In this document: one piece after another, positions 277 through 11,909 of the stretch | Numbering within the stretch: the first letter of the stretch is position 1 | Layout of the letters: every line of letters starts with the position of its first letter | NCBI GenBank assembly: GCA_033763455.1 | Contig: JANRKO010000085.1 | Coordinates: forward strand, 1-12,548 | Direction of reading: 5' to 3' | Origin: Polyangiaceae bacterium | GTDB taxonomy: Bacteria > Myxococcota_A > Polyangia > Polyangiales > Polyangiaceae | Length of the DNA stretch: 12,548 bases | The notes under the pieces: model-generated | Seen by the model: the letters and a program-made list of their open reading frames with translations, nothing else | What the model was told of the DNA's origin: nothing | Databases searched by the model: none | Position numbers and translations under genes: made by a program

Positions 277-843
277 AGATGATTTCTCTAGAAATGATTC
301 CCGGAATGCCTCGTAGCATGGAATTTCTGCGGAAAACGAAGCACTCGAACGGCGTCATGCCCTGCAACCGTAGCCAGCCTCCATCTGCTCGAAACTCTTC
401 CGGTTTCCAAGCACTATGTCAATTTACAACGTAGGCAGCATTTGCCTCCGCGCGGTTTCAGCCCGCGAGCCGGCTGGCTGCAGCAGCCGGAAGTGGCTTT
501 AGCCGAATCTCAATTTCGCACATCCCCCGTGCGGGCAAGCGCGCCCCTCTACGCACACTTCCGCAGAGGCGAGACTCTTGTCGTTAAGTGTTCACTGCGC
601 CGCAATTCACGAGCGATCACCACTTTACCTGCGTGTCCAACTCATGCCTTGGTGAGCGTCAAAATACCGACGGCCATTGCAAGTTCTTTTTTCTATTTCG
701 GATTAAAGCCGAGAACTCACTGACCGTTCGCATCTTGTACCGATGAATCCTTCGACATGAGGTCGTAGGCAACAAAAGGCAACGGATTGTTATAGGTGGC
801 GCTCAGCTTCGACAGAGTCGCTCATCAGGCGGAGACAAAAACC

Positions 844-2817
844 ATGTTACCCAAGACTCGCATACTGAAAAATCTGGTTCTCGCACTCGGTACGTTTTCA
901 CCGGTGTTGCTTGGCGGCTGCAGCAGCGCCCCCATTGATACAGCTACCGAAGAGTTTAGCGAGAGCGCAGCGGCCCTCGGCGTTGCAGTAGCCACCTGCT
1001 CTACTGCGGGCTCCACGGGTTACAACGCCACCACCAAGCTCCTCGCCATCACGATGAGCACTCCGAACGTTGTTTTCGGCGTTGTGAACGGCATTATCAC
1101 GGTTAATGGCTACTCTTGCGTGACCTCGGGGAACGTGGCCTTGAAGCCCACCGACGTTAAGAAAGTCACCATCACGGGCACGGGCTCGAATGAAAAAGTT
1201 GTGATCGATACCCTTGGCGGCGCGCTTGGCGCCAGCATCCTTTCCGCCACTGGCGGCATCGTTGTGGACCTCGGGAGCGGCACGGACCAGCTCTCACTGC
1301 GCGGGTCCAGCTCGGCTGATAACTGGAAAGCCGGCGAAAACGCGAGCGACGTTTACTTTGAACTCAGCGGAGATACCACGCTTGACCTCAGGGTGATCGC
1401 GGCTGACACCATTGCTGTCGCTACCAGCAGTGGCAACGACATCTTCACCGCACGCGGGGGCACACTCACGGGCACGCATCTGAAAGGCTCCACGCTCACT
1501 GCCGTGACCGCCGTATCAACCACGCTGACCATCAACGGTGGCGACGGTAACGATACGATTACCGGTGGCGACGGTAACGACATCATCGCTGGCGGCGCTG
1601 GCGACGACACCTTCAAGACCGGCGCGGCAAAAGACGGCGACGACATCGTCTCCGGTGGCGCTGGCACGGATACTGTCGACTACTCGACCCGCACTGCCGC
1701 TCTGGCGGTTGTGCTCGACGGAGCCACATCGAGTGGTGATATCTCCGCGACTGCAGAGGCCGATCTACTGGGCGCGACAGTTGGTCCTGTCGTGAGCATC
1801 GACATCGAGAACATCATCGGCGGCACGGCTGCCGACACTCTAACAGGCAATGCCCTTTCCAATAACATCAAGGGCGGCGGCGGCGACGATCTCATCTCCG
1901 GTGGCGTCAACGCTGGCGCCTGTACGACCGATATCGATGTGATTGATGGCGAAGCTGGCAACGACACGTTCGACATGGGCTTGGCTTCCGATTGCGGTGA
2001 CGCTCTGACTGGTGGCACAGGCACCGACACAGTGGATTATCAAGGTCGCAGCGCGGTTCTCACCATCGACCTCGATGGGACGGCCGATGACGGCGACGGA
2101 ACCGCAGTTGAAAAGGACAACGTGAAGTCTGACATCGAGATCGTCCTCGGTGGCTCCCTCGGCGACACGATTACAGGATCGTCCGGCGACAACGAGTTGC
2201 ACGGTGGCCCGGGTGCGGACACCCTCAACGGCGGTTCTGGCAACGACACGTTGATCGGAAACACCGGCAACGACATCCTCAATGGCGAAGCGGGCGACGA
2301 CATCTTCAACGATCAGGAAGGCGATGACGCCAAGTACACAGTGGCCGAAGCCCACGGCGCCGGTGACGACATCTTCAACGGTGGCTCGGGCGTAGACGAC
2401 AAGGTCCTCTACACGGCCCGCGCAGCCACCGTCGATGCTACCATCTGCGTCGATCTCACCAAGCTCACCGGTAACTCGGCGTTGGTTGCAGCCGAGTGTG
2501 CGGATGACGATGGCGAAGGTGCCGAAGCCGATAAGCTCGTGAACATCGACCACATCGTAGGTGGCGACGGCGCTGACAACCTCACGGGAGGCTCAACCGA
2601 TGACACGCTCGAGGGTGGCCCTGGAGGTGACACACTCACTGGCGGAGCCGGCGCCGACCGCCTCTTCGGCGACGCAGACGCTGACACACTCAACGGCGGC
2701 GCGGACGACGACACGCTCGACGGTGGCGCAGACGCAGACACCCAGAACGGTGACGCTGGTGACGGCGACTCCTGCTTCGACGATGGGTCCGACACGCTCG
2801 CCACCTGCGAACTGTAA
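844..2817 (+). CDS. RTX/hemolysin-type calcium-binding repeat lipoprotein (657 aa), probable surface protein
   Basis: GGAG Shine-Dalgarno at 831-834 favours ATG 844 over GTG 796. Lipobox LGG-C26. Many GGxGxDxLx nonapeptides, three approximately 120-aa repeat units and a C-terminal Cys pair. Confidence 0.9.
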   Translation: MLPKTRILKNLVLALGTFSPVLLGGCSSAPIDTATEEFSESAAALGVAVATCSTAGSTGYNATTKLLAITMSTPNVVFGVVNGIITVNGYSCVTSGNVALKPTDVKKVTITGTGSNEKVVIDTLGGALGASILSATGGIVVDLGSGTDQLSLRGSSSADNWKAGENASDVYFELSGDTTLDLRVIAADTIAVATSSGNDIFTARGGTLTGTHLKGSTLTAVTAVSTTLTINGGDGNDTITGGDGNDIIAGGAGDDTFKTGAAKDGDDIVSGGAGTDTVDYSTRTAALAVVLDGATSSGDISATAEADLLGATVGPVVSIDIENIIGGTAADTLTGNALSNNIKGGGGDDLISGGVNAGACTTDIDVIDGEAGNDTFDMGLASDCGDALTGGTGTDTVDYQGRSAVLTIDLDGTADDGDGTAVEKDNVKSDIEIVLGGSLGDTITGSSGDNELHGGPGADTLNGGSGNDTLIGNTGNDILNGEAGDDIFNDQEGDDAKYTVAEAHGAGDDIFNGGSGVDDKVLYTARAATVDATICVDLTKLTGNSALVAAECADDDGEGAEADKLVNIDHIVGGDGADNLTGGSTDDTLEGGPGGDTLTGGAGADRLFGDADADTLNGGADDDTLDGGADADTQNGDAGDGDSCFDDGSDTLATCEL

Positions 2818-2846
2818 TCTGACCTAGATAGGCCTTAAGTGGCTCC

Positions 2847-2884
2847 AAGCGAGGCGCGTAACTGTACGTGCCTCGCTTCTTTTT
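2847..2884 (+). terminator. Rho-independent terminator
   Basis: AAGCGAGGCGCGTA (2847-2860), loop ACTG, TACGTGCCTCGCTT (2865-2878): a 14-bp stem with one G-U pair, followed by CTTTTT, 30 bp after the stop codon at 2817. Confidence 0.85.
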
Positions 2885-2925
2885 GTGTGTGGCGCCCTCA
2901 CTCTAGAACGGAAGAAAGTCCCAAC

Positions 2926-4203
2926 ATGAGAACTGCATTGCTCGGCCTCCCTCTTGCCGCAATTCTTATCGCTGCTGCGTGCAGTAGTTCCAAACCGGTG
3001 GATGGTGACGGCGCCTCCGGTGAAGTCGGTGAGGCGCGGTCCACCGGAGGAACGAAAGCCACAGGCGGCGCTCAAGCCAAAACGGGTGGCTTAGGCAACG
3101 GCGAAATGGGGGGAGCGAGTACATCTGCGGGGAACACAGAGGTTGGGGGGATGTCCGCTGCTGCTGGCGCTGCTGGTGCGCCAAGCGTAATGATTACGAC
3201 GGATGCAGCTTATGACGGCATCAATCTTGACGACGTGAACGTTGGCCTTGCACCCCCGGGCTGCGCCGAAGGCGTGGACGTTTTGGGTCAACTCGAACTA
3301 AAGCTCTCAGGCGCTGGCAAAGTAGTGGTTCAGGTGTTGGACGGACTGTTGTTCGCGAATGGAGTGAGCTGTGGCCCAGGCGTCACACATTTGACAGTCA
3401 CGGGGTCCGCCCAGAACAACATTGTCGTGTTTGATCGCACCCAAGGCGGCCCGCTTCCGATAGCAACCGTTGACCTCGGGGCAGGCACTGACGAGGTGTG
3501 GATCCGTGGTACGCCTGCGGCGGAAGCCGTGAGCGTGGGGGAGGAAGCTGGCAAGCTGGTTTTCAGCGATCTTGTGGCGCGCTTTCTTGATGCCTCCAAC
3601 ATTGAAGGACTGATAGTGAGCACCGGGCCTGGCGACGATCAACTGTTCGCGGACGGCGCGCTAGCTGCTGCGGCCCCCTTAAAGATGGGGGTAGATTTCT
3701 ACGGCGGTGCGGATAGCGACGAAATTCGCGGCGGTGAGGGCAAAGATCGCTTGTACGGCGGCCCCGGCCTGGACACGTTCCGAAGCCCCTCGGCCGACGG
3801 TGCGGACCTTTACGACGGCGGCGACGACAATGACACACTCTCCTATGACGGCCGCAGCCAGCCGCTGACCATCACGATCGGCACCGGAGCAAACGATGGC
3901 CCGTCCGGCGAGAACGACGACGTACAAAGCACGGTGGAAGGGATAATCGCCGGAAGCGGCAACGACTTCATCACGGGCTCAGCGTTCAGCAATCAGTTTG
4001 CGGGTGGAGACGGCAACGATACGTTGATCGGTGGCGACGGCGATGACTGGCTCTACGGTGACGCCGGAGACGACGTGCTCATGGGTGGCAACGGCGACGA
4101 TCTTCTGAACGGCCTCACAGGTACCAACGTTATCGACGCGGGCCCAGGCTGCAATATATGTTCTAGCACCCCGATGGACACCATTTCGGGCTGCAGCCTC
4201 TAG
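2926..4203 (+). CDS. RTX/hemolysin-type calcium-binding repeat lipoprotein (425 aa), paralog of the upstream gene
   Basis: ATG 2926 begins MRTALLGLPLAAILIAAA-C19 (signal peptide II). A Gly/Ala/Thr linker and GGxGxD repeats follow. Motifs are collinear with the upstream protein (NGVSC/NGYSC, VDLGAGTD/VDLGSGTD). Confidence 0.88.
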   Translation: MRTALLGLPLAAILIAAACSSSKPVDGDGASGEVGEARSTGGTKATGGAQAKTGGLGNGEMGGASTSAGNTEVGGMSAAAGAAGAPSVMITTDAAYDGINLDDVNVGLAPPGCAEGVDVLGQLELKLSGAGKVVVQVLDGLLFANGVSCGPGVTHLTVTGSAQNNIVVFDRTQGGPLPIATVDLGAGTDEVWIRGTPAAEAVSVGEEAGKLVFSDLVARFLDASNIEGLIVSTGPGDDQLFADGALAAAAPLKMGVDFYGGADSDEIRGGEGKDRLYGGPGLDTFRSPSADGADLYDGGDDNDTLSYDGRSQPLTITIGTGANDGPSGENDDVQSTVEGIIAGSGNDFITGSAFSNQFAGGDGNDTLIGGDGDDWLYGDAGDDVLMGGNGDDLLNGLTGTNVIDAGPGCNICSSTPMDTISGCSL

Positions 4204-4288: not shown

Positions 4289-4747
4289 ATGCGAAAAGAC
4301 GTTCGACACCTAGCAGCAGCAGCATTCGCTCTTTTTTCGGGGGCCTGCGGCGGGGGTAACAACGAGGACGAACCCGGAGCAAAGGCCTTGCTCGCAAACG
4401 TCCAAGCACAGAGCTACCGAAGCTGGCAGCGCGCCCCGGGCTGGGAAACACGCCAACCCACCGTCTCAGTGCACGGCCAAACCGCGGACATTTTTGTGAA
4501 CGAGGTGCTGAGCTCAGCGCTCTCCACTCAGGGGCTCGGAGCTTGGCCGGTAGGCGCAGTTCTCGTGAAGGATGCGTACCGCGGTGGAGATCTTTCGCTG
4601 ATTGCCATCATGGAAAAGAGAGATAGCGGCTGGTTCTTTGCTGAGTTCTCGGCCAACGAAGAGGTGAAATACTCCGGGCAACCCGACGTTTGCTTAGGAT
4701 GCCACCAGGCAGCTACGGATTCTGTGCTCAGCGTGGGCCTACCATGA
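4289..4747 (+). CDS. Cytochrome P460-family monoheme c-type cytochrome, lipoprotein
   Basis: Lipobox SGA-C20. Motifs YRSW, IFVN, WPVGAVLVKD, MEK..GWFF and a C-terminal CLGCH heme-binding motif (4691-4705) occur in the order typical of the P460/c'-beta family. Confidence 0.85.
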   Translation: MRKDVRHLAAAAFALFSGACGGGNNEDEPGAKALLANVQAQSYRSWQRAPGWETRQPTVSVHGQTADIFVNEVLSSALSTQGLGAWPVGAVLVKDAYRGGDLSLIAIMEKRDSGWFFAEFSANEEVKYSGQPDVCLGCHQAATDSVLSVGLP

Positions 4748-5472
4748 GCGGGCGCGCGTACTTTTGGAGCCGGGTTCGAGCCGTCGTCTACGTGACGGGG
4801 CTTTGCCTAATTGGGCTCACAAGAAATGCTCACGCAGAACTATTCACACTCGGCGTAGGTGCTAACCTTTTTGGAGGCGTTGCCTGGTTGCCGCAACCCG
4901 AGCCTTCTGGTTTCACTCTGCTAAGGACCCAACGCGGTGGTGATATTCCCAGCCTGATCGGCGCCGCATACGGCGGTGGTGTCACATTGGAGCCGCGCTT
5001 CCTGGATACATTAGGCCTCGAGCTCGACGGCTTTTTGGCTAGAGACTTCATCTCCGGGGATGTGAAGGTGGGGGCGAGCAAAACGCCGTTGAACATTGGC
5101 CAAGTGGCGGTCCACATCCCTACCCTTCTCAAGGTGAGGCTTGAAACGGGGCTTTTCGACTTCACCGCCGCTCTCGGCCCCGAATGGGTCATCCCGACGC
5201 TGCCGCGTGCGGAGGCAACCAACAGCACATTCACGGCCATAGCTTCTGCGGATAGCTACACGGCTCTCACGTGTGCACTCGGCGGGGAAGCCAACGTAAA
5301 CCTCCCGGGCTTTGATGTACGTTGGCCACTTCAGGTTCGGCTGAGCTACATGCCGAGCGTTGGGTCGGCGTTATCCGAACGCGTCACCGCTCTGCCAAGT
5401 GACGCTGTGATATTTGAAAGCGTGCCGCAGTACCAGGTTTCGCTAGTAACCGGCCTATTGAATTTTTGGTAG
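4744..5472 (+). CDS. Putative outer-membrane beta-barrel protein (242 aa)
   Basis: ATGA overlap with the upstream stop. Signal peptide I ending AHA-E. Alternating amphipathic strands (FTLGVGANLFGG, YGGGVTLE, LGLELD, HIPTLLKVRL) and an aromatic C-terminus (LLNFW). Confidence 0.65.
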   Translation: MSGRAYFWSRVRAVVYVTGLCLIGLTRNAHAELFTLGVGANLFGGVAWLPQPEPSGFTLLRTQRGGDIPSLIGAAYGGGVTLEPRFLDTLGLELDGFLARDFISGDVKVGASKTPLNIGQVAVHIPTLLKVRLETGLFDFTAALGPEWVIPTLPRAEATNSTFTAIASADSYTALTCALGGEANVNLPGFDVRWPLQVRLSYMPSVGSALSERVTALPSDAVIFESVPQYQVSLVTGLLNFW

Positions 5473-5504: not shown

Positions 5505-6428
5505 TCAAGCCGCCCTTGAAGCCTGATATTGGGCTCGATAGGCGCGCGGCTCAATCCCGGTGTGTTTCCTGAACAAGCGAGCAAAGTAGTTGGCACCTTC
5601 CACGCCTACGAGGGGCGCAATCTCGGAAATTTTGAGCGAGGTTTCGCGCAGCATCTGCTCGGCTTTGCTGATTCGCAGGGTGTTTACGTATTGCATCGGC
5701 GCCATGTCGAAGCACTCCTTGAAGCAACGCTCCAGCGTCTTGCGAGACATGTGCGCTTCGTGGGCCAAACCTTCCACAGTAACCACTTGTGCAAAATGAC
5801 GCTCTAGCCACTCCAACACACCCGACAGGCGCACCAAAGCCTGGGACGTAACGGCTGGCATATGGGTGTAGAGACGGGATAATTCCACCAAGATTTGAGA
5901 GAAGATGCCGAGGCTCGCGACCTCGAAACCTGGAGCCCGCTCAGTAAGCTCGCCGTACAGCTTCCCTAGTGAAATGCTCAGACTGGTGAGCGTTTCTGGA
6001 CCAACCCGCAGCCTGCTCTGAAAACCATGGCGCACCCGGAGTTCGGGCTCAAACATGAAGAAGGCTGAATACCCGGGGATCTGGCGCAAATGTTGCTCAG
6101 GCAGCCAGAGGCGGCGGGGGTCAAAGATGACGTTAATGAGCGCCAGGTTCTTGCAGTCCGCGTAGCCGTGCAGCGTTCCTGCGGGGATCACAAAGACGTC
6201 ACCCGCTCCAATGTCGAAGGAATCTTTCGACAAAAGGTGCTTACCTGAACCTCCTGTGACCACAACAAGCTCCCAGCAACTGCCATGGCCGTGGATCGGC
6301 ATCGGGAGGTGGTCTTGCACGGCGAAGCTGTCCAGGGCGAAACCTTTCAGCGACGAAAGAGGCTCCTTAGTAGTGGCCCGCGGCTGGGGTTTCGTGGGCG
6401 TGATGAGTTCCGGGGTTGGCTCTGACAC
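5505..6428 (-). CDS. AraC-family transcriptional regulator (RhaS/RhaR-like, cupin sensor plus double HTH)
   Basis: N-terminal HGH..WELVVVTGGSGKH..GDVFVIPAGTLHGY cupin motif. C-terminal LAHEAHMSRKTLERCFK and ISEIA..VG..ANYFARLFRKHTGIEPRAYR AraC signature. Confidence 0.95.
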   Translation of the reverse strand: MSEPTPELITPTKPQPRATTKEPLSSLKGFALDSFAVQDHLPMPIHGHGSCWELVVVTGGSGKHLLSKDSFDIGAGDVFVIPAGTLHGYADCKNLALINVIFDPRRLWLPEQHLRQIPGYSAFFMFEPELRVRHGFQSRLRVGPETLTSLSISLGKLYGELTERAPGFEVASLGIFSQILVELSRLYTHMPAVTSQALVRLSGVLEWLERHFAQVVTVEGLAHEAHMSRKTLERCFKECFDMAPMQYVNTLRISKAEQMLRETSLKISEIAPLVGVEGANYFARLFRKHTGIEPRAYRAQYQASRAA

Positions 6429-6664
6429 AGCGCAAAAGTGTAGGTTATGATGGACTCGGACCTTTCAGCGTTGGCCAGGGCGACCCAGACACTGAATTGC
6501 GCCCCGAGACGCCAACCACGTTCCGGCCTGCGAACCATGGCTGGCGAGCGCGCTACCGGCACCGACCGCGTAAAGTGTCCGTCCAGCGCCGCCGGCGGCA
6601 CGTCCTTCGGCTCGCAGGACGTAATGTCAGGCAGTAATACAAATTGCCGGAAAATTCGCTGGAT

Positions 6665-6731
6665 TTTCGCCCACCATGGCCTCATTTCGCCCGCAAAACA
6701 GCGTGACGCCCCCGATAGCCCGCGCTAGGTT
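6665..6731 (+). promoter_or_regulatory. Putative sigma70-type promoter with upstream direct repeats (candidate AraC sites)
   Basis: TTTCGCCC at 6665-6672 and 6685-6692 (20-bp period), then GTGACG (6703-6708)-N17-TAGGTT (6726-6731). An AAAGGG Shine-Dalgarno-like sequence precedes ATG 6761. Confidence 0.35.
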
Positions 6732-6760
6732 CCACGGCCCCACCAAACGAAAGGGCCACC

Positions 6761-8227
6761 ATGCCGGGCTGGAGCACACCACTTAACCTCCTCGAAGAAG
6801 AACTCATTCAACGTCGCGACGAAGGCGTCAAAATCCCTGCAACGTTGCTTCAGAAGATAGCTGAGCTGCATCGCAAGTTCGACGCGTACAACACCGCGCT
6901 CATCGACCCTTTGTACGACGAACTCATGGCCCTTCCCGACGACGCGGAATTGAGCGCGCGTGAGCCCAATGAGCTCGATCAGATCCGTGCCTTGCGCCCG
7001 GACGGGCCGCGCGATCTCAAGTGGCAGCCTTCCGAGGCGGAGCTTTTGGACCGCCTGCACGGTGCGTGGACGGGGCGTGCCTCAGGCTGTGCCCTCGGTA
7101 AGCCCGTGGAAGGCGTGGGCGTACTGTCGACCGCCGCCGGCAAGCTCGTGGGGCGCCAACGAATCAAGGCTTACTTGAGCAACCGCGGCGATTGGCCGCT
7201 CAAGGATTACTTCTCGGGGCGCGACGTCGGGGATGGTCTCAAGGTTATCTGCAAGCCCTCACAGCGCGAAACCATCGCTTATATGGAGCCAGACGACGAC
7301 ATTCACTACACGCTCGTCGGCCTCGGGGTGATTGAAGAAAAGGGGCCCGAATTTACGTGGCAGGATGTGGGCCACTATTGGCTGGATCACATCCCGCAGA
7401 CCAACATCTGCACAGCCGAAGCTCAGGCCATGCTCAACCTGCAGAATCGCTCGATACGCGGGCGTCACGGCAACGCAACGGCAGCCTTCACCCGCCGTTA
7501 CAGGAATCCGTACCGCGAGTGGATCGGCGCCCAGATCCGCTCTGATGGCTGGGCTTATTGCTGCGCCGGAAAGCCGGAGCTAGCAGCCGAGTTCGCCTGG
7601 CGCGACGCTCACTGGACACACGAACGCAACGGTATTTACGGCGAGATGTTGTTCGCTGCGATCCAGGCTGCGGCTTTCGTGGAATCGGACCCGAAGCGCT
7701 TGGTGGAGATCGGGCTTTCAGAGATCCCGCGGGATTGCCGTTTGGCTGTAGCTGCTCGCAAGTGCCTGAAGCTCGTGGAAGCTCACGCGACCTGGGAAAC
7801 CTGTATGGATGCGGTCGAGGTGCTGTGCGCCGAGATCAGCCCGAGCCACATCGCGGGGGACCCGTGGTGGGAGGGAGATCCGGTGGAAGGCATGCATGCC
7901 GTGCACACTATCAACAACGCGCTCATCTGCATCTTGAGCTTGTTCTACGGCAAGATGGACACGGTAGATGTGCTCACCGTAAGCGTCATGTGCGGCCTCG
8001 ATACGGACTGCAACGGAGCTACCGTTGGCTCAATCGTGGGAGCCGCAGCCGGCAAGGCGCGCTTCAAGAACGATCTGGCGGGCCGCCTCAACGACACCAT
8101 CAAGCCCAATTTGATCGGGTTCCAAGAGGTCAGTATGAAAGATCTCGCCGCGCGCACTGCCGTACAGTGGAAGCGGGTCGAAGATTGGTACCGTTCGCGC
8201 CCAAGTGGCGACGTTAAGAAAGCCTAA
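6761..8227 (+). CDS. ADP-ribosylglycohydrolase (ARH/DraG) family protein with N-terminal helical extension
   Basis: Motifs GAWTGRASGCALGKPVEG, EPDDDIHYT, NPYREWIGAQIRSD and GLDTDCNGATVGSIVG (metal-binding DD and DTD). No signal peptide. Confidence 0.93.
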   Translation: MPGWSTPLNLLEEELIQRRDEGVKIPATLLQKIAELHRKFDAYNTALIDPLYDELMALPDDAELSAREPNELDQIRALRPDGPRDLKWQPSEAELLDRLHGAWTGRASGCALGKPVEGVGVLSTAAGKLVGRQRIKAYLSNRGDWPLKDYFSGRDVGDGLKVICKPSQRETIAYMEPDDDIHYTLVGLGVIEEKGPEFTWQDVGHYWLDHIPQTNICTAEAQAMLNLQNRSIRGRHGNATAAFTRRYRNPYREWIGAQIRSDGWAYCCAGKPELAAEFAWRDAHWTHERNGIYGEMLFAAIQAAAFVESDPKRLVEIGLSEIPRDCRLAVAARKCLKLVEAHATWETCMDAVEVLCAEISPSHIAGDPWWEGDPVEGMHAVHTINNALICILSLFYGKMDTVDVLTVSVMCGLDTDCNGATVGSIVGAAAGKARFKNDLAGRLNDTIKPNLIGFQEVSMKDLAARTAVQWKRVEDWYRSRPSGDVKKA

Positions 8228-8239
8228 TAGGCTCCCAGC

Positions 8240-10576
8240 GTGAGCGCGCAGCTTCCGCCGGAATCAGGCACACAGGGCTCGGTGTTCGAGCCTTTCGTGC
8301 CGGCCACCTCGGCCCCGGCGGAGCTCAACCTACGCACCTTAGTTATCGGTTCGTTGTTGGGCATAGTGTTCGCTGCCTCATCGGTGTACCTCGGCCTCAA
8401 GGTAGGGCTCACCGTCTCAGCATCGATTCCCGTGGCTGTGCTGTCGATCACGTTGTTCCGCTATTTGTCGAAGGTTCTCGGCAGGCCCCGCGCCACGATC
8501 CTTGAGAACAATATTGTTCAGACCACCGGCTCTGCGGGGGAATCTCTAGCTGCTGGCGTGGCTTTCACACTGCCCTCGCTTTTGCTCATGGGCTTCGAGC
8601 TGGAGATCTGGCGAATCCTGTTAGTGGCCATGCTGGGTGGGCTCATCGGCGTCTTGATGATGATTCCGATGCGGCACGGTTTGATGGTGAAAGAGCACGG
8701 CAAGCTCGCTTACCCAGAAGGAACCGCGTGCGCCGATGTGCTGATTGTGGGCGAACAAGGCGGCACCAACGCAAAGACCGTATTTTTTGGCTTCCTTGTG
8801 GGTCTTGGCTACACCATTCTGAATCTTGTAACCAAGCTCTGGGCAGATACGGCAAGCTTCGCGCTCACGTTTTGGGGGCGGCTCACCGGAGCCCGGCTGG
8901 ATGTTGAAGTCTCTCCGCCCATGTTGGGCGTGGGTTACATCATCGGCCCACGTGTCGCGTGCAGCATGTTCGCGGGAGGCATGCTCGCATTTCTGATCCT
9001 CATCCCGATGATACATCTGTTCGGGGGCGCTCTGCCGACGCCCATGTACCCTGAGCTTACGCGCACTATTTCCCAGATGAGCGCGTACCAAATCCGCAAC
9101 GCCTACATTCTCTATATTGGTGCTGGTGCCGTGGCGACGGGGGGATTCATTGCGCTTGGCCGCGCCTTGCCGACATTGCTCGCGGCCTTCAGGAGCGGCC
9201 TTGCCGATATCGGCCCACTCGGCAGAAACGCGGGCGCTTCTTCGGCCAAGAGCGCGCGTTGGACCCCACGCACTGAGCTCGATTTGCCGATGAGCATTGT
9301 TATCGGCGGCTCTCTGGCGCTCATCGTGGTCATTTGGCTGGCACCCGTGCTGGAGATCAACTTCGTCTCTGCCTTGCTTATCTTATTGTTTGGCTTCTTC
9401 TTCGTCACCGTTTCGAGCAGAATTACCGGGGAAATTGGCTCATCCTCGAATCCGATTTCAGGCATGACGGTGGCCACCCTGCTCATCACGTGCGGTTTGT
9501 TTGTTTTGATTGGTTGGGTGGGCGCTGGTTACAAAGCCATCGCCCTTACCACGGCCGCCCTCGTGTGTGTGGCAGCCTCCAATGGCGGCACCATCTCCCA
9601 AGATCTGAAGACGGGCTTCCTCGTGGGTGCCACACCGCGGGCGCAGCAGATCGCCATTTTAGTGGGCGTCGTCACAAGTAGCGTCGTCATCGGGTTCACG
9701 CTCCTACTGCTCAATCAGTCGCACACAACTTATCGCCCCGTGCAGGTGCCAGATTTCACGGCACCCGTCGCGGCCGACGCCGATCCTCAAGTGGGCCCCG
9801 ACGGCAAGGCTTATCGCGTCTGGTATGCCAAGGAAGATCATGGTGCGGTGGCGCGCGGCAAATATCTCGCTGACGGTGCGGGCAAGCTCCAGTTTCTCGT
9901 CGACCCCGGGGTGTGCGGCACCTACGAGTTTCGGCTGGAGGCGAAGACTTTTTCGAAGCCTCTACCTATTCCAGCAGGGGCCCCGAGCGAGCTCGGAATC
10001 GACCACCAAATGTACTCAGTGGTCACCACCGATCACGCCCAGGGAGAGATCCCAGCTGGGCGTTACCTTGTAGCGCCGAATGGCAGCGTCGCTTACCACG
10101 CTGCCAGTGTGTGGAAATTCGATGCCCCCAAAGCCCAGCTTTTCCGTTTGATCATCGATGGCACGCTTGGCGGCAAGCTTCCCTGGGGCTTGGTGCTCAT
10201 CGGAGCCCTGCTTGCCATCATGATGGAGCTTGTGGGTGTGGCGAGCCTGCCGTTTGCTGTGGGTTTGTATCTACCGATCGGCACTTCTGCAGGTATCTTC
10301 GTAGGCGGCATGGTGCGCTGGCTCGTCGATCGCCGTTCGCGAGCCACGGGAACCGCTGCGGAGTTTTCCCCGGGCGTCCTTATGGCTTCTGGCCTCATCG
10401 CCGGAGGAGCTATCGCGGGCGTGGGTCAGTCCGTGGTCGCGTTCTACGAACTGGACGGTAAGCTGGATCTTTCGGGTGTTCTGGGCTCGTTGTCGAGCAA
10501 CGCTTCGTGGTGGCCCATGGCTTGGTTTCTAGTGATGGCAGCGCTGCTCTACCGAAGTGGAACCAAGCGAGCGTAA
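8240..10576 (+). CDS. OPT-family oligopeptide transporter (bacterial YSL-like group)
   Basis: Motifs YLGLKVGLTVSASIP, ILENNIVQT..SAGES, YPEGTACA, GSSSNPISGM, QDLKTGFLVGATP..QQ and FAVGLYLP, with many transmembrane segments. Starts 12 bp after the ARH stop. Confidence 0.95.
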   Translation: MSAQLPPESGTQGSVFEPFVPATSAPAELNLRTLVIGSLLGIVFAASSVYLGLKVGLTVSASIPVAVLSITLFRYLSKVLGRPRATILENNIVQTTGSAGESLAAGVAFTLPSLLLMGFELEIWRILLVAMLGGLIGVLMMIPMRHGLMVKEHGKLAYPEGTACADVLIVGEQGGTNAKTVFFGFLVGLGYTILNLVTKLWADTASFALTFWGRLTGARLDVEVSPPMLGVGYIIGPRVACSMFAGGMLAFLILIPMIHLFGGALPTPMYPELTRTISQMSAYQIRNAYILYIGAGAVATGGFIALGRALPTLLAAFRSGLADIGPLGRNAGASSAKSARWTPRTELDLPMSIVIGGSLALIVVIWLAPVLEINFVSALLILLFGFFFVTVSSRITGEIGSSSNPISGMTVATLLITCGLFVLIGWVGAGYKAIALTTAALVCVAASNGGTISQDLKTGFLVGATPRAQQIAILVGVVTSSVVIGFTLLLLNQSHTTYRPVQVPDFTAPVAADADPQVGPDGKAYRVWYAKEDHGAVARGKYLADGAGKLQFLVDPGVCGTYEFRLEAKTFSKPLPIPAGAPSELGIDHQMYSVVTTDHAQGEIPAGRYLVAPNGSVAYHAASVWKFDAPKAQLFRLIIDGTLGGKLPWGLVLIGALLAIMMELVGVASLPFAVGLYLPIGTSAGIFVGGMVRWLVDRRSRATGTAAEFSPGVLMASGLIAGGAIAGVGQSVVAFYELDGKLDLSGVLGSLSSNASWWPMAWFLVMAALLYRSGTKRA

Positions 10577-10722: not shown

Positions 10723-10736
10723 GGGGGGGGGGGGGG
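10723..10736 (+). repeat. G14 homopolymer tract in the putative promoter region of the protease gene
   Basis: 14 consecutive G, 5 bp downstream of TTGACT (10712-10717) and directly followed by TACTCA. Confidence 0.9.
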
Positions 10737-10787: not shown

Positions 10788-11909
10788 ATGCGTTTAAGAA
10801 GTTCAGGCCCTTCGTTGGTGTGCTCTATCGTAGCCTTGTCAGCGGGCTGCAGTTCAGCTCAGCCCTCCCCAAACGAGGGCGCGCCTTTGGTGATTGACGG
10901 ACAGCCCTACGATTTATGGGACGGGGTCGCTGAAGGCGACAGCGGAGGGGACAGTCCCAACTCGGGCGTAGGCGAGAGCGTTGTGAGTCCCGCCCCCTCG
11001 TCCCCGCCCGTTGCTGCTGAGAGCTATGTGCGCGATCTGACGGACGAACAGCTTGCCGAAGAGCTTCGGCCAGTCGTCCTCAACCAGGAAGGCTCGTTCC
11101 GAGCGAGGAATGCCCCAATCGAGATGGCAAGGCGCATCCGGGAGACTCTCGGGCAATCCATCCGTATTGAAGGCCGTGCGCCCCTGGACCCTACCAACAA
11201 GCGCCTGCAAGGAATCTTTGGCGCCGACGACCGACGCACGATCGATAACACAGCATTCCCGTGGCGGACCGTGGCTTTTCTTGAACCGTCGGGGTGTACG
11301 GCTACCTTCATTGGGTGGACTACCGCCATCAGTGCAGCGCACTGCGTGGCTGCCAAAGGGGGCTGGAAAAGCGGTCAGCGCACCCAAACGTTCCGCCCTG
11401 GCGCCAAGGGCACAGCAAGCCCCTTCGGGACCGTTGCAGCGGGAGTTTCCGGATGCGGGGGGTTTGCCATCCCACAAGCGTATCTGGACACAGGTGATCG
11501 CAGATGGGATTTCGCGGTTTACGATTTTACCAACTGCACCTCAATGCCCACATGGCAAACTGGGTACAGTGGAATTTGGGTTAATGCCCCGATCGCGGGG
11601 AAGCAGGGCAAGCTTTACGGCTACCCCGCTCCGAGGTGTCCAGATACGAGCGTTTACCCTAGCAACTGCGGGATGTCGGGGGGGCTTTGGTATGACGACT
11701 ACGTCCTTCAGTCCACCAACATCGATTCGAGCGGCGGCCAAAGCGGTGGCCCCTGGATGTCGAGCGACAACTACTTGATAGGAAGCCACTGTGGTGACCA
11801 CACCTGGTCGTGCGGCTTCCTCGGTCTCAGTACTTGCCGAGCCAACGAGGGCAGACGCCTCGACACCGCCTATTGGAGCTTTATCCAGGGCTACGTTACG
11901 GAGTACTGA
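10788..11909 (+). CDS. Trypsin-fold serine protease (V8/glutamyl endopeptidase-like), lipoprotein with pro-region
   Basis: GGGAGG Shine-Dalgarno at 10777-10782. Lipobox SAG-C21. Probable mature start IFGADDR. Catalytic motifs SAAHC, WDFAV and GQSGGP, plus LIGSH. Confidence 0.92.
   Translation: MRLRSSGPSLVCSIVALSAGCSSAQPSPNEGAPLVIDGQPYDLWDGVAEGDSGGDSPNSGVGESVVSPAPSSPPVAAESYVRDLTDEQLAEELRPVVLNQEGSFRARNAPIEMARRIRETLGQSIRIEGRAPLDPTNKRLQGIFGADDRRTIDNTAFPWRTVAFLEPSGCTATFIGWTTAISAAHCVAAKGGWKSGQRTQTFRPGAKGTASPFGTVAAGVSGCGGFAIPQAYLDTGDRRWDFAVYDFTNCTSMPTWQTGYSGIWVNAPIAGKQGKLYGYPAPRCPDTSVYPSNCGMSGGLWYDDYVLQSTNIDSSGGQSGGPWMSSDNYLIGSHCGDHTWSCGFLGLSTCRANEGRRLDTAYWSFIQGYVTEY

Follow-up and report, generated by a model that had tools for sequence, protein, structure and literature searches.

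A stretch of 12,548 nucleotides from a member of the Polyangiaceae (contig JANRKO010000085.1 of assembly GCA_033763455.1, referred to below as the window) contains a gene for a protein of the ADP-ribosylglycohydrolase (ARH) fold, P0001, followed directly by a gene for an OPT-family transporter, P0002, with a gene for an AraC/XylS-family regulator, P0003, on the other side of the ARH gene. The ARH and OPT genes are a genuine, lineage-specific two-gene unit, the pairing being confined to one genus, and a rough probability of 0.5 is assigned to functional coupling of their products. In the reading preferred here, the OPT carrier would import a small organic solute, and the soluble, metal-dependent ARH-fold enzyme would then act on this solute in the cytoplasm, removing a glycosyl group; both proteins may thus act on one shared substrate. 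The group removed would most likely be a ribosyl or other furanosyl moiety, and the unit would serve nutrition or salvage rather than signalling. The window is contig C85 in a 6.56-Mb genome bin (93.7% complete) from a soil or sediment myxobacterium.

Three genomes of the same genus (G001-G003, hereafter the congeners) make up, with this one, a set of four species-level genomes. The OPT gene directly follows the ARH gene in 3/3 congeners, and so in 4/4 genomes, with protein identities of about 91% for ARH and 83-84% for OPT and a gap of about 12-30 bp across the set. The sole DNA that is syntenic with the congeners lies at window positions 6702-10551 (~77% identity), and the flanking genes on either side vary from genome to genome, so that the two-gene block has persisted through rearrangements at both ends. 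The pairing also recurs in metagenomes, where 5/6 contigs with the OPT gene belong to the same lineage and have ARH upstream.

As a first-pass annotation of the window had stated, the ARH gene ends 12 bp before the OPT gene on the same strand; this can be read directly in the sequence, with a TAA stop codon at 8225-8227 and a GTG start codon at 8240. A promoter and terminator scan, in which site counts were not above those of shuffled sequence, placed no terminator-like site in the 12-bp gap, and the arrangement suggests that the two genes are probably co-transcribed as a single transcript. Contigs from DNA reads span the ARH-OPT junction in runs X1 and X2, and in runs X1-X4 they join the window-specific spacer to the ARH gene, which demonstrates contiguity and not transcription. 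All three genes described by the annotation are present as open reading frames (ORFs) with the positions and strands that it gave, and their Pfam identities agree (Table 1).

Table 1. Features of the ARH-OPT locus and its divergent regulator gene (window positions).
Feature	Position	Strand	Basis
AraC/XylS-family regulator P0003, N-terminal cupin sensor and C-terminal double helix-turn-helix, 307 aa	5505..6428	-	Pfam
Divergent spacer between AraC and ARH genes, 332 bp	6429..6760		4-genome alignment
ARH-fold enzyme P0001 (PF03747), divergent ~470-aa subfamily, soluble, 488 aa	6761..8227	+	Pfam, AlphaFold2, Foldseek
Gap between ARH and OPT genes, 12 bp	8228..8239	+	Sequence
OPT-family transporter P0002, 778 aa	8240..10576	+	Pfam, NCBIfam TIGR00733

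P0001 matches the ADP_ribosyl_GH profile (PF03747) over residues 101-433, with E 2.7e-35 and 122.9 bits against a cut-off of 26.2. Its AlphaFold2 model (predicted local distance difference test, pLDDT, 91.7; predicted template-modelling score, pTM, 0.93) has the all-helical ARH fold, and was matched by Foldseek to ARH3, DraG and MJ1187 with a probability of 1.00, target-normalised template-modelling (TM) scores of 0.58-0.80 and identities of 11-16%. When the comparison is limited to DraG, ARH1 and ARH3 (PDB 2woc, 3o5t, 6g1q, 9rfe), the probability is again 1.00 and the target-normalised TM score is 0.65-0.76, but the structural identity is 12-16%, and the P0001 model adds a helical N-terminal region of ~100 aa and a disordered insert at residues 362-377. 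The acidic residues of the metal site are conserved with these enzymes: E117, D178-D179-D180 and D414/D416 do not vary across 34 sequences, and are presumably the ligands of a binuclear Mg/Mn site, as in known ARHs. C417 stands where T/S is usual in the C-terminal D-x-D-T/S motif. A Kyte-Doolittle scan found no hydrophobic segment in P0001, in line with the cytoplasmic location that the first-pass annotation had given it, and 14 in P0002, which fits a soluble cytoplasmic enzyme paired with a polytopic carrier.

P0002 is recognised by the Pfam OPT profile (PF03169, 2.8e-90) and scores 297.7 bits with the NCBIfam equivalog TIGR00733 ('OPT family oligopeptide transporter'), above its cut-off of 182.5. 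Between the twelfth and thirteenth hydrophobic segments lies a non-hydrophobic insert of ~155 aa (residues 487-641, window 9722-10180), which is partly unmatched in the OPT orthologs of three other genomes (G038, G036, G023) and for which no Pfam match was obtained at E<=0.01 when residues 495-647 were searched.

The subfamily to which P0001 belongs is large, with at least 7836 members (E<=0.001) among 8000 candidates scored. Members are about 455-495 aa long and share 60-68% identity across Planctomycetota, Polyangiaceae and Verrucomicrobia, with farther members (39-57%) in Lentisphaerae, marine Gammaproteobacteria, Paenibacillus, Anaerolineae and some archaea. Judged by sequence, this subfamily is very distant from DraG and ARH3. 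A single-sequence search of the PDB with P0001 gave no match, a profile search of the PDB with its family returned DraG only at E=0.55, and the N- and C-terminal motifs align with those of DraG at weak E-values. Where DraG has the motifs GDALG and DADT, the subfamily has GCALG and DTDC, and it has invariant blocks of its own (WIGAQIRxD and RDAxWTHxRNGIYGE). The ESM Atlas yielded just generic 'ADP-ribosylglycohydrolase family' clusters, and no literature on the subfamily was found among titles and abstract openings. Eight longer homologs are fused to GH3, SASA esterase, sulfatase, FGE-sulfatase, CoA-transferase or AAA/DUF4143 domains; these were set aside as a functional clue, being too few and too mixed, and some are perhaps gene-calling artefacts.

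The gene neighbourhoods of this family were counted in the best 80 of 595 loci, which were confirmed in the genome collection. Genes in the fetched loci were called with a longest-ORF script, five ARH loci were placed by tblastn coordinates, and the counts overstate independence because the loci are phylogenetically clustered. An AraC-type gene is found immediately upstream of ARH in 17/80 loci, divergent in nine (Planctomycetota, Lentisphaerae) and co-directional in eight (Paenibacillus), and downstream in 0/80; within 8 kb, such a gene is found in 22/80. A PfkB cluster is represented in 6/80 loci, and in three a PfkB kinase with ribokinase as its best NCBIfam match is the immediate neighbour, that of L069 scoring above the equivalog cut-off. 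Other immediate neighbours include IU-nucleoside hydrolases beside PnrA-type nucleoside ABC transporters (two loci), a cytidine deaminase (one locus) and a cytosine-permease-like NCS1 carrier, and further genes encode CUT1-type sugar ABC components, an SSF carrier, sulfatases, GH29, GH9 and GH2 proteins and xylose-isomerase-like TIM barrels. An inner-membrane importer component (OPT, ABC, SSF or NCS1) lies immediately beside ARH in 7/80 loci, and an MFS carrier gene follows the 63%-identical ARH gene of genome G014.

These neighbours are variable but not random. The context of AraC regulators, kinases and nucleoside or sugar transporters points to an inducible catabolic hydrolase that acts on a ribose- or sugar-containing small molecule, and not to a DraG-like switch or toxin immunity. 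The first-pass annotation had called the locus catabolic rather than signalling, having seen no ADP-ribosyltransferase in the window; none of these families was matched by Pfam among the 11 window ORFs scanned, nor among 120 immediate neighbours at the 80 loci, and the AraC, ribokinase-like, nucleoside hydrolase and importer genes of the subfamily loci bear the call out. Elsewhere, members of the subfamily would be AraC-controlled catabolic enzymes used with whichever importer the lineage has of its own (ABC, SSF, NCS1 or MFS), a place that would be taken here by OPT.

The pairing of a transporter with a cytoplasmic ARH-like protein is already documented in the available text of two reports. 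In E. coli, the yegTUV genes encode a NHS/MFS nucleoside-type transporter (YegT), an ARH-like protein (YegU) and a PfkB kinase (YegV), with GgaR/YegW as the repressor (PMC10819704). As in the window, a transporter gene and a cytoplasmic PF03747-family gene are found together, in that case in one operon under a sugar-type regulator; however, the carrier there is MFS and not OPT, a PfkB kinase is present that has no counterpart in the window, and the regulator is of the GntR type and not the AraC type. The functions of the yegTUV genes are described as unknown, and no substrate is assigned, in the text available from that paper (PMC10819704). The ribose-utilisation systems of Bacteroidetes (rus loci) also contain ADP-ribosylglycohydrolase variants, as interchangeable 'cleavage' modules beside transport and ribokinase genes that scavenge ribose-containing nutrients (bioRxiv 10.1101/574913). 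These loci differ from the window in having SusC/D-type outer-membrane uptake, RusT and ribokinases, and the portion of the report available gives no biochemical substrate for their ARH enzymes (bioRxiv 10.1101/574913). Compared with both types of module, the locus described here has the adjacent, co-directional transporter gene (12-bp gap; 4/4 congeneric genomes) and lacks the PfkB or ribokinase gene. An ARH-like enzyme with OPT as its partner was not found in the literature. Because the ARH-OPT pairing is confined to one genus, it is best described as a lineage-specific variant and not as a new kind of system.

The value of these observations lies less in the ARH-OPT locus than in the large and strongly conserved ARH-fold subfamily, which has no characterised or crystallised member and which is found in polysaccharide- and biomass-degrading phyla, repeatedly with an AraC regulator of its own. 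Once a substrate is identified, thousands of genes labelled 'ADP-ribosylglycohydrolase' would gain a function, and it would become clear whether nutrient catabolism has taken the ARH fold into use. The ARH-OPT pair is one handle on this problem, offering a candidate imported substrate, and cultured Paenibacillus strains with AraC-ARH-ABC transporter loci are a more tractable one. A more specific proposal, which is unlikely to hold as a whole, is that the subfamily would represent not an ADP-ribose hydrolase but a new class of inducible cytoplasmic glycosidase on the ARH fold, releasing ribosyl or furanosyl groups from a small conjugate and coupled in this genus to an OPT that imports glycosylated or ribosylated peptides or compounds of the peptidyl-nucleoside type. 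If such a glycosidase-OPT route were real, it would be the first catabolic route for conjugates of this kind and would give a bacterial OPT a role that is not limited to peptides.

Coupling of the two proteins must be weighed against another account, somewhat doubtful but a real possibility, in which lineage-specific rearrangement made the ARH and OPT genes neighbours, perhaps co-transcribed, with no substrate in common. The OPT would then take up ordinary oligopeptides for a proteolytic predator, and the ARH-fold enzyme would act on an unrelated sugar conjugate, either cytoplasmic or separately imported. Several observations weigh in this direction and against coupling. The first-pass annotation had made conservation of the adjacency in relatives one of its tests, and this conservation is complete in the four congeneric genomes but ends with the genus: no ARH-OPT adjacency is found among 79 ARH-family loci outside the lineage, and the only one of the 80 loci with an OPT gene (L001) is from a 92%-identical congener that is not independent of G001-G003. 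OPT orthologs with 55-69% identity are present in other genera (G033, G006, G038, G036, G015), alone and with no conserved partner, and no ARH of the P0001 type was found in these five genomes at E<=1e-20; an ORF upstream of the OPT gene of G033 was dismissed as low-complexity and probably spurious. A 65%-identical metagenome OPT has a second OPT beside it and no ARH. In a sample of 201 genomes from the phylum, OPT is present in 124 and a PF03747 gene in 109, and among the matches listed (150/278 for OPT, 150/166 for ARH), a partial test made by eye, no ARH gene lies within 100 kb of an OPT gene beyond the pair in the window. The neighbours of ARH orthologs are highly variable, and 73/80 loci have no importer as an immediate neighbour, which implies that the enzyme needs no dedicated carrier. 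Congeners differ visibly in the arrangement of this region, the AraC gene is adjacent to the pair in just 1/4 genomes (vide infra), and no PfkB kinase was matched by Pfam among the window ORFs, a ribokinase likewise being absent from the window. To our knowledge, OPT carriers act on peptides, glutathione and metal chelates and not on glycosides, and little is known about which substrates bacterial OPTs accept. Such an unshared adjacency is opposed by the persistence of the block through rearrangements on both sides in four species-level genomes, with the gap held to about 12-30 bp, and by the coupling of other subfamily members to importers of other classes.

Two further explanations were considered. 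The first-pass annotation had suggested that modified peptides are imported, and in the form of that idea considered here the OPT takes up peptides of prey or detritus that carry ADP-ribosyl or ribosyl groups, and the enzyme cleaves the bond between sugar and amino acid as ARH1 and ARH3 do. Such a route would suit an ARH fold with its acidic metal-site residues intact and a transporter that scores above the cut-off of the oligopeptide-transporter equivalog, and the chemistry is familiar, since cleavage of Arg and Ser linkages by ARH1 and ARH3 is established; PDB titles among the Foldseek matches name ARH3 complexes with ADP-ribosyl-arginine and with a serine-modified peptide. It is nonetheless very unlikely, given that the subfamily lies far from the ADP-ribose-specific enzymes (DraG profile match at E=0.55, no single-sequence PDB match, structural identity of 11-16%), that 79/80 ARH loci have no peptide carrier, and that no conserved source of ADP-ribosyl peptides, pyrophosphatase or peptidase accompanies them. 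No result supports this substrate, the recurring partners of the subfamily being sugar, ribose or nucleoside genes. Regulatory or protective de-ADP-ribosylation, whether as a DraG-like switch or as immunity against an ADP-ribosyltransferase (ART) toxin of the Tri1-type ART-ARH pairs, would be consistent with the appearance of DraG and of ART-ARH toxin/immunity pairs among the structural matches, and is scarcely probable at all. The DraT/DraG and ART-ARH systems have a cognate transferase nearby, and no transferase family was seen in the window or beside the 80 orthologs, where 120 immediate neighbours were scanned; PADLOC gave 0 matches for the five window proteins submitted, sequence similarity to DraG is marginal, and the AraC, kinase and transporter context is catabolic.

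To return to the preferred reading of a coupled carrier and enzyme, the pair would have a conserved promoter-proximal region of its own, and the adjacent AraC gene may have been brought in after a deletion and may now control the pair. The AraC gene is divergent from the ARH gene across the 332-bp spacer, as had been noted. Its product has Pfam matches to HTH_18 (1.2e-22, residues 221-299) and HTH_AraC, and to AraC_binding and Cupin_2 (44-108), giving the expected cupin and double helix-turn-helix architecture. An earlier description of P0003 as RhaS-like applies to architecture only: RhaS is the best NCBIfam match, but its score of 109.8 bits is below the equivalog cut-off of 288. P0003 is one of 18 paralogs in this genome (E<=1e-10). 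The first-pass annotation had also treated this regulator as part of the system, which is consistent with its position here but not with that of its positional orthologs in the congeners (74% identity), found behind a GH42 gene and, on shared contigs, 8.3 kb (G003) and 12.6 kb (G001) from ARH. These orthologs were recognised by the RTX homolog that adjoins them: homologs of the second RTX protein of the window (51-53% identity) lie beside the AraC copies of the congeners and mark conserved synteny. In 3/3 congeners a GH42 beta-galactosidase gene directly precedes the AraC ortholog, and the 7 kb upstream of ARH contain, in order towards ARH, genes for DUF1552, a DUF1592-type protein, a methyltransferase and a C-type-lectin protein. 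Orthologs of the GH42 and methyltransferase genes were not found in this genome, where the best matches are 54% and 35% identical. Because of this absence, and of the 8-12 kb that separate the two genes in the congeners, the juxtaposition of AraC and ARH looks like the product of losing ~8-12 kb of intervening genes and not like an ancestral regulator-operon pair. Orthology of the window AraC with the ARH-adjacent AraC proteins of other phyla was considered and rejected, which are just 21-36% identical to it; 12 full-length paralogs encoded in its own genome are closer, at 41-56%.

Within the spacer, the ARH-proximal ~120 bp (about 6641-6760) are partly conserved in 4/4 genomes and the rest is specific to this genome; blastn synteny with the congeners begins at 6702. 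A candidate promoter was identified by eye in this region, with a -35-like GTGACG at 6703-6708, a 17-nt spacer and a -10-like TAGGTT at 6726-6731 (TAGGTT or TAGCTT across genomes); this site was not called by a consensus promoter scan. A direct repeat of TTTCGCCC is present at 6665-6672 and 6685-6692, with a 20-bp spacing. By our estimate, chance alone would give a repeated 8-mer in 330 bp, so TTTCGCCC is only a lead for a possible AraC site.

The remaining genes of the window encode two RTX-repeat proteins, a cytochrome P460-like lipoprotein, an unassigned ORF and a weak trypsin-like lipoprotein. The RTX calcium-binding-repeat proteins are encoded by a tandem pair of genes at 796-4203 (673 and 454 aa). 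At 4289-5472, the product of the P460-like gene has a lipoprotein-type N-terminus, and the next ORF, of 260 aa and with no family match, shares 58 bp with that gene; both are unmatched in stretches of 3.2-3.9 kb around the syntenic AraC copies of the congeners. The gene for the trypsin-like lipoprotein (10788-11909) has a run of 14 G 51 bp upstream of it, at 10723-10736, which could be prone to slippage or could be an artefact of the assembly.

Other neighbourhoods of the family offer a few recurring features. In a conserved gene row of marine Gammaproteobacteria, an enoyl-CoA hydratase gene is found upstream of ARH in four loci (L032, L040, L041, L055) and a DUF3604 gene downstream in three (L032, L040, L041), with sulfatase, DUF1537-type sugar-acid kinase and iron-type alcohol dehydrogenase (Fe-ADH) genes recurring within 8 kb. 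This genome (G000) has two further ARH-family genes. A third member, on contig C80 and 37% identical (L103 7414-10438), has a small cupin-domain gene after it on the same strand and a PhyH-type dioxygenase gene opposite it, on a contig that also carries GH42 and AraC paralogs. The closer paralog, on contig C6 and 80% identical to P0001 (G000:C6:93369-94829; L101 8001-9482), is flanked by three PA14-domain proteins and a DUF1592-type/DUF1552 pair. Similarly, the ARH-OPT pair of the congeners sits among DUF1592/DUF1552 pairs with CBM60 or lectin domains, and the association of ARH with predicted carbohydrate-binding proteins in this genus is thus recurrent.

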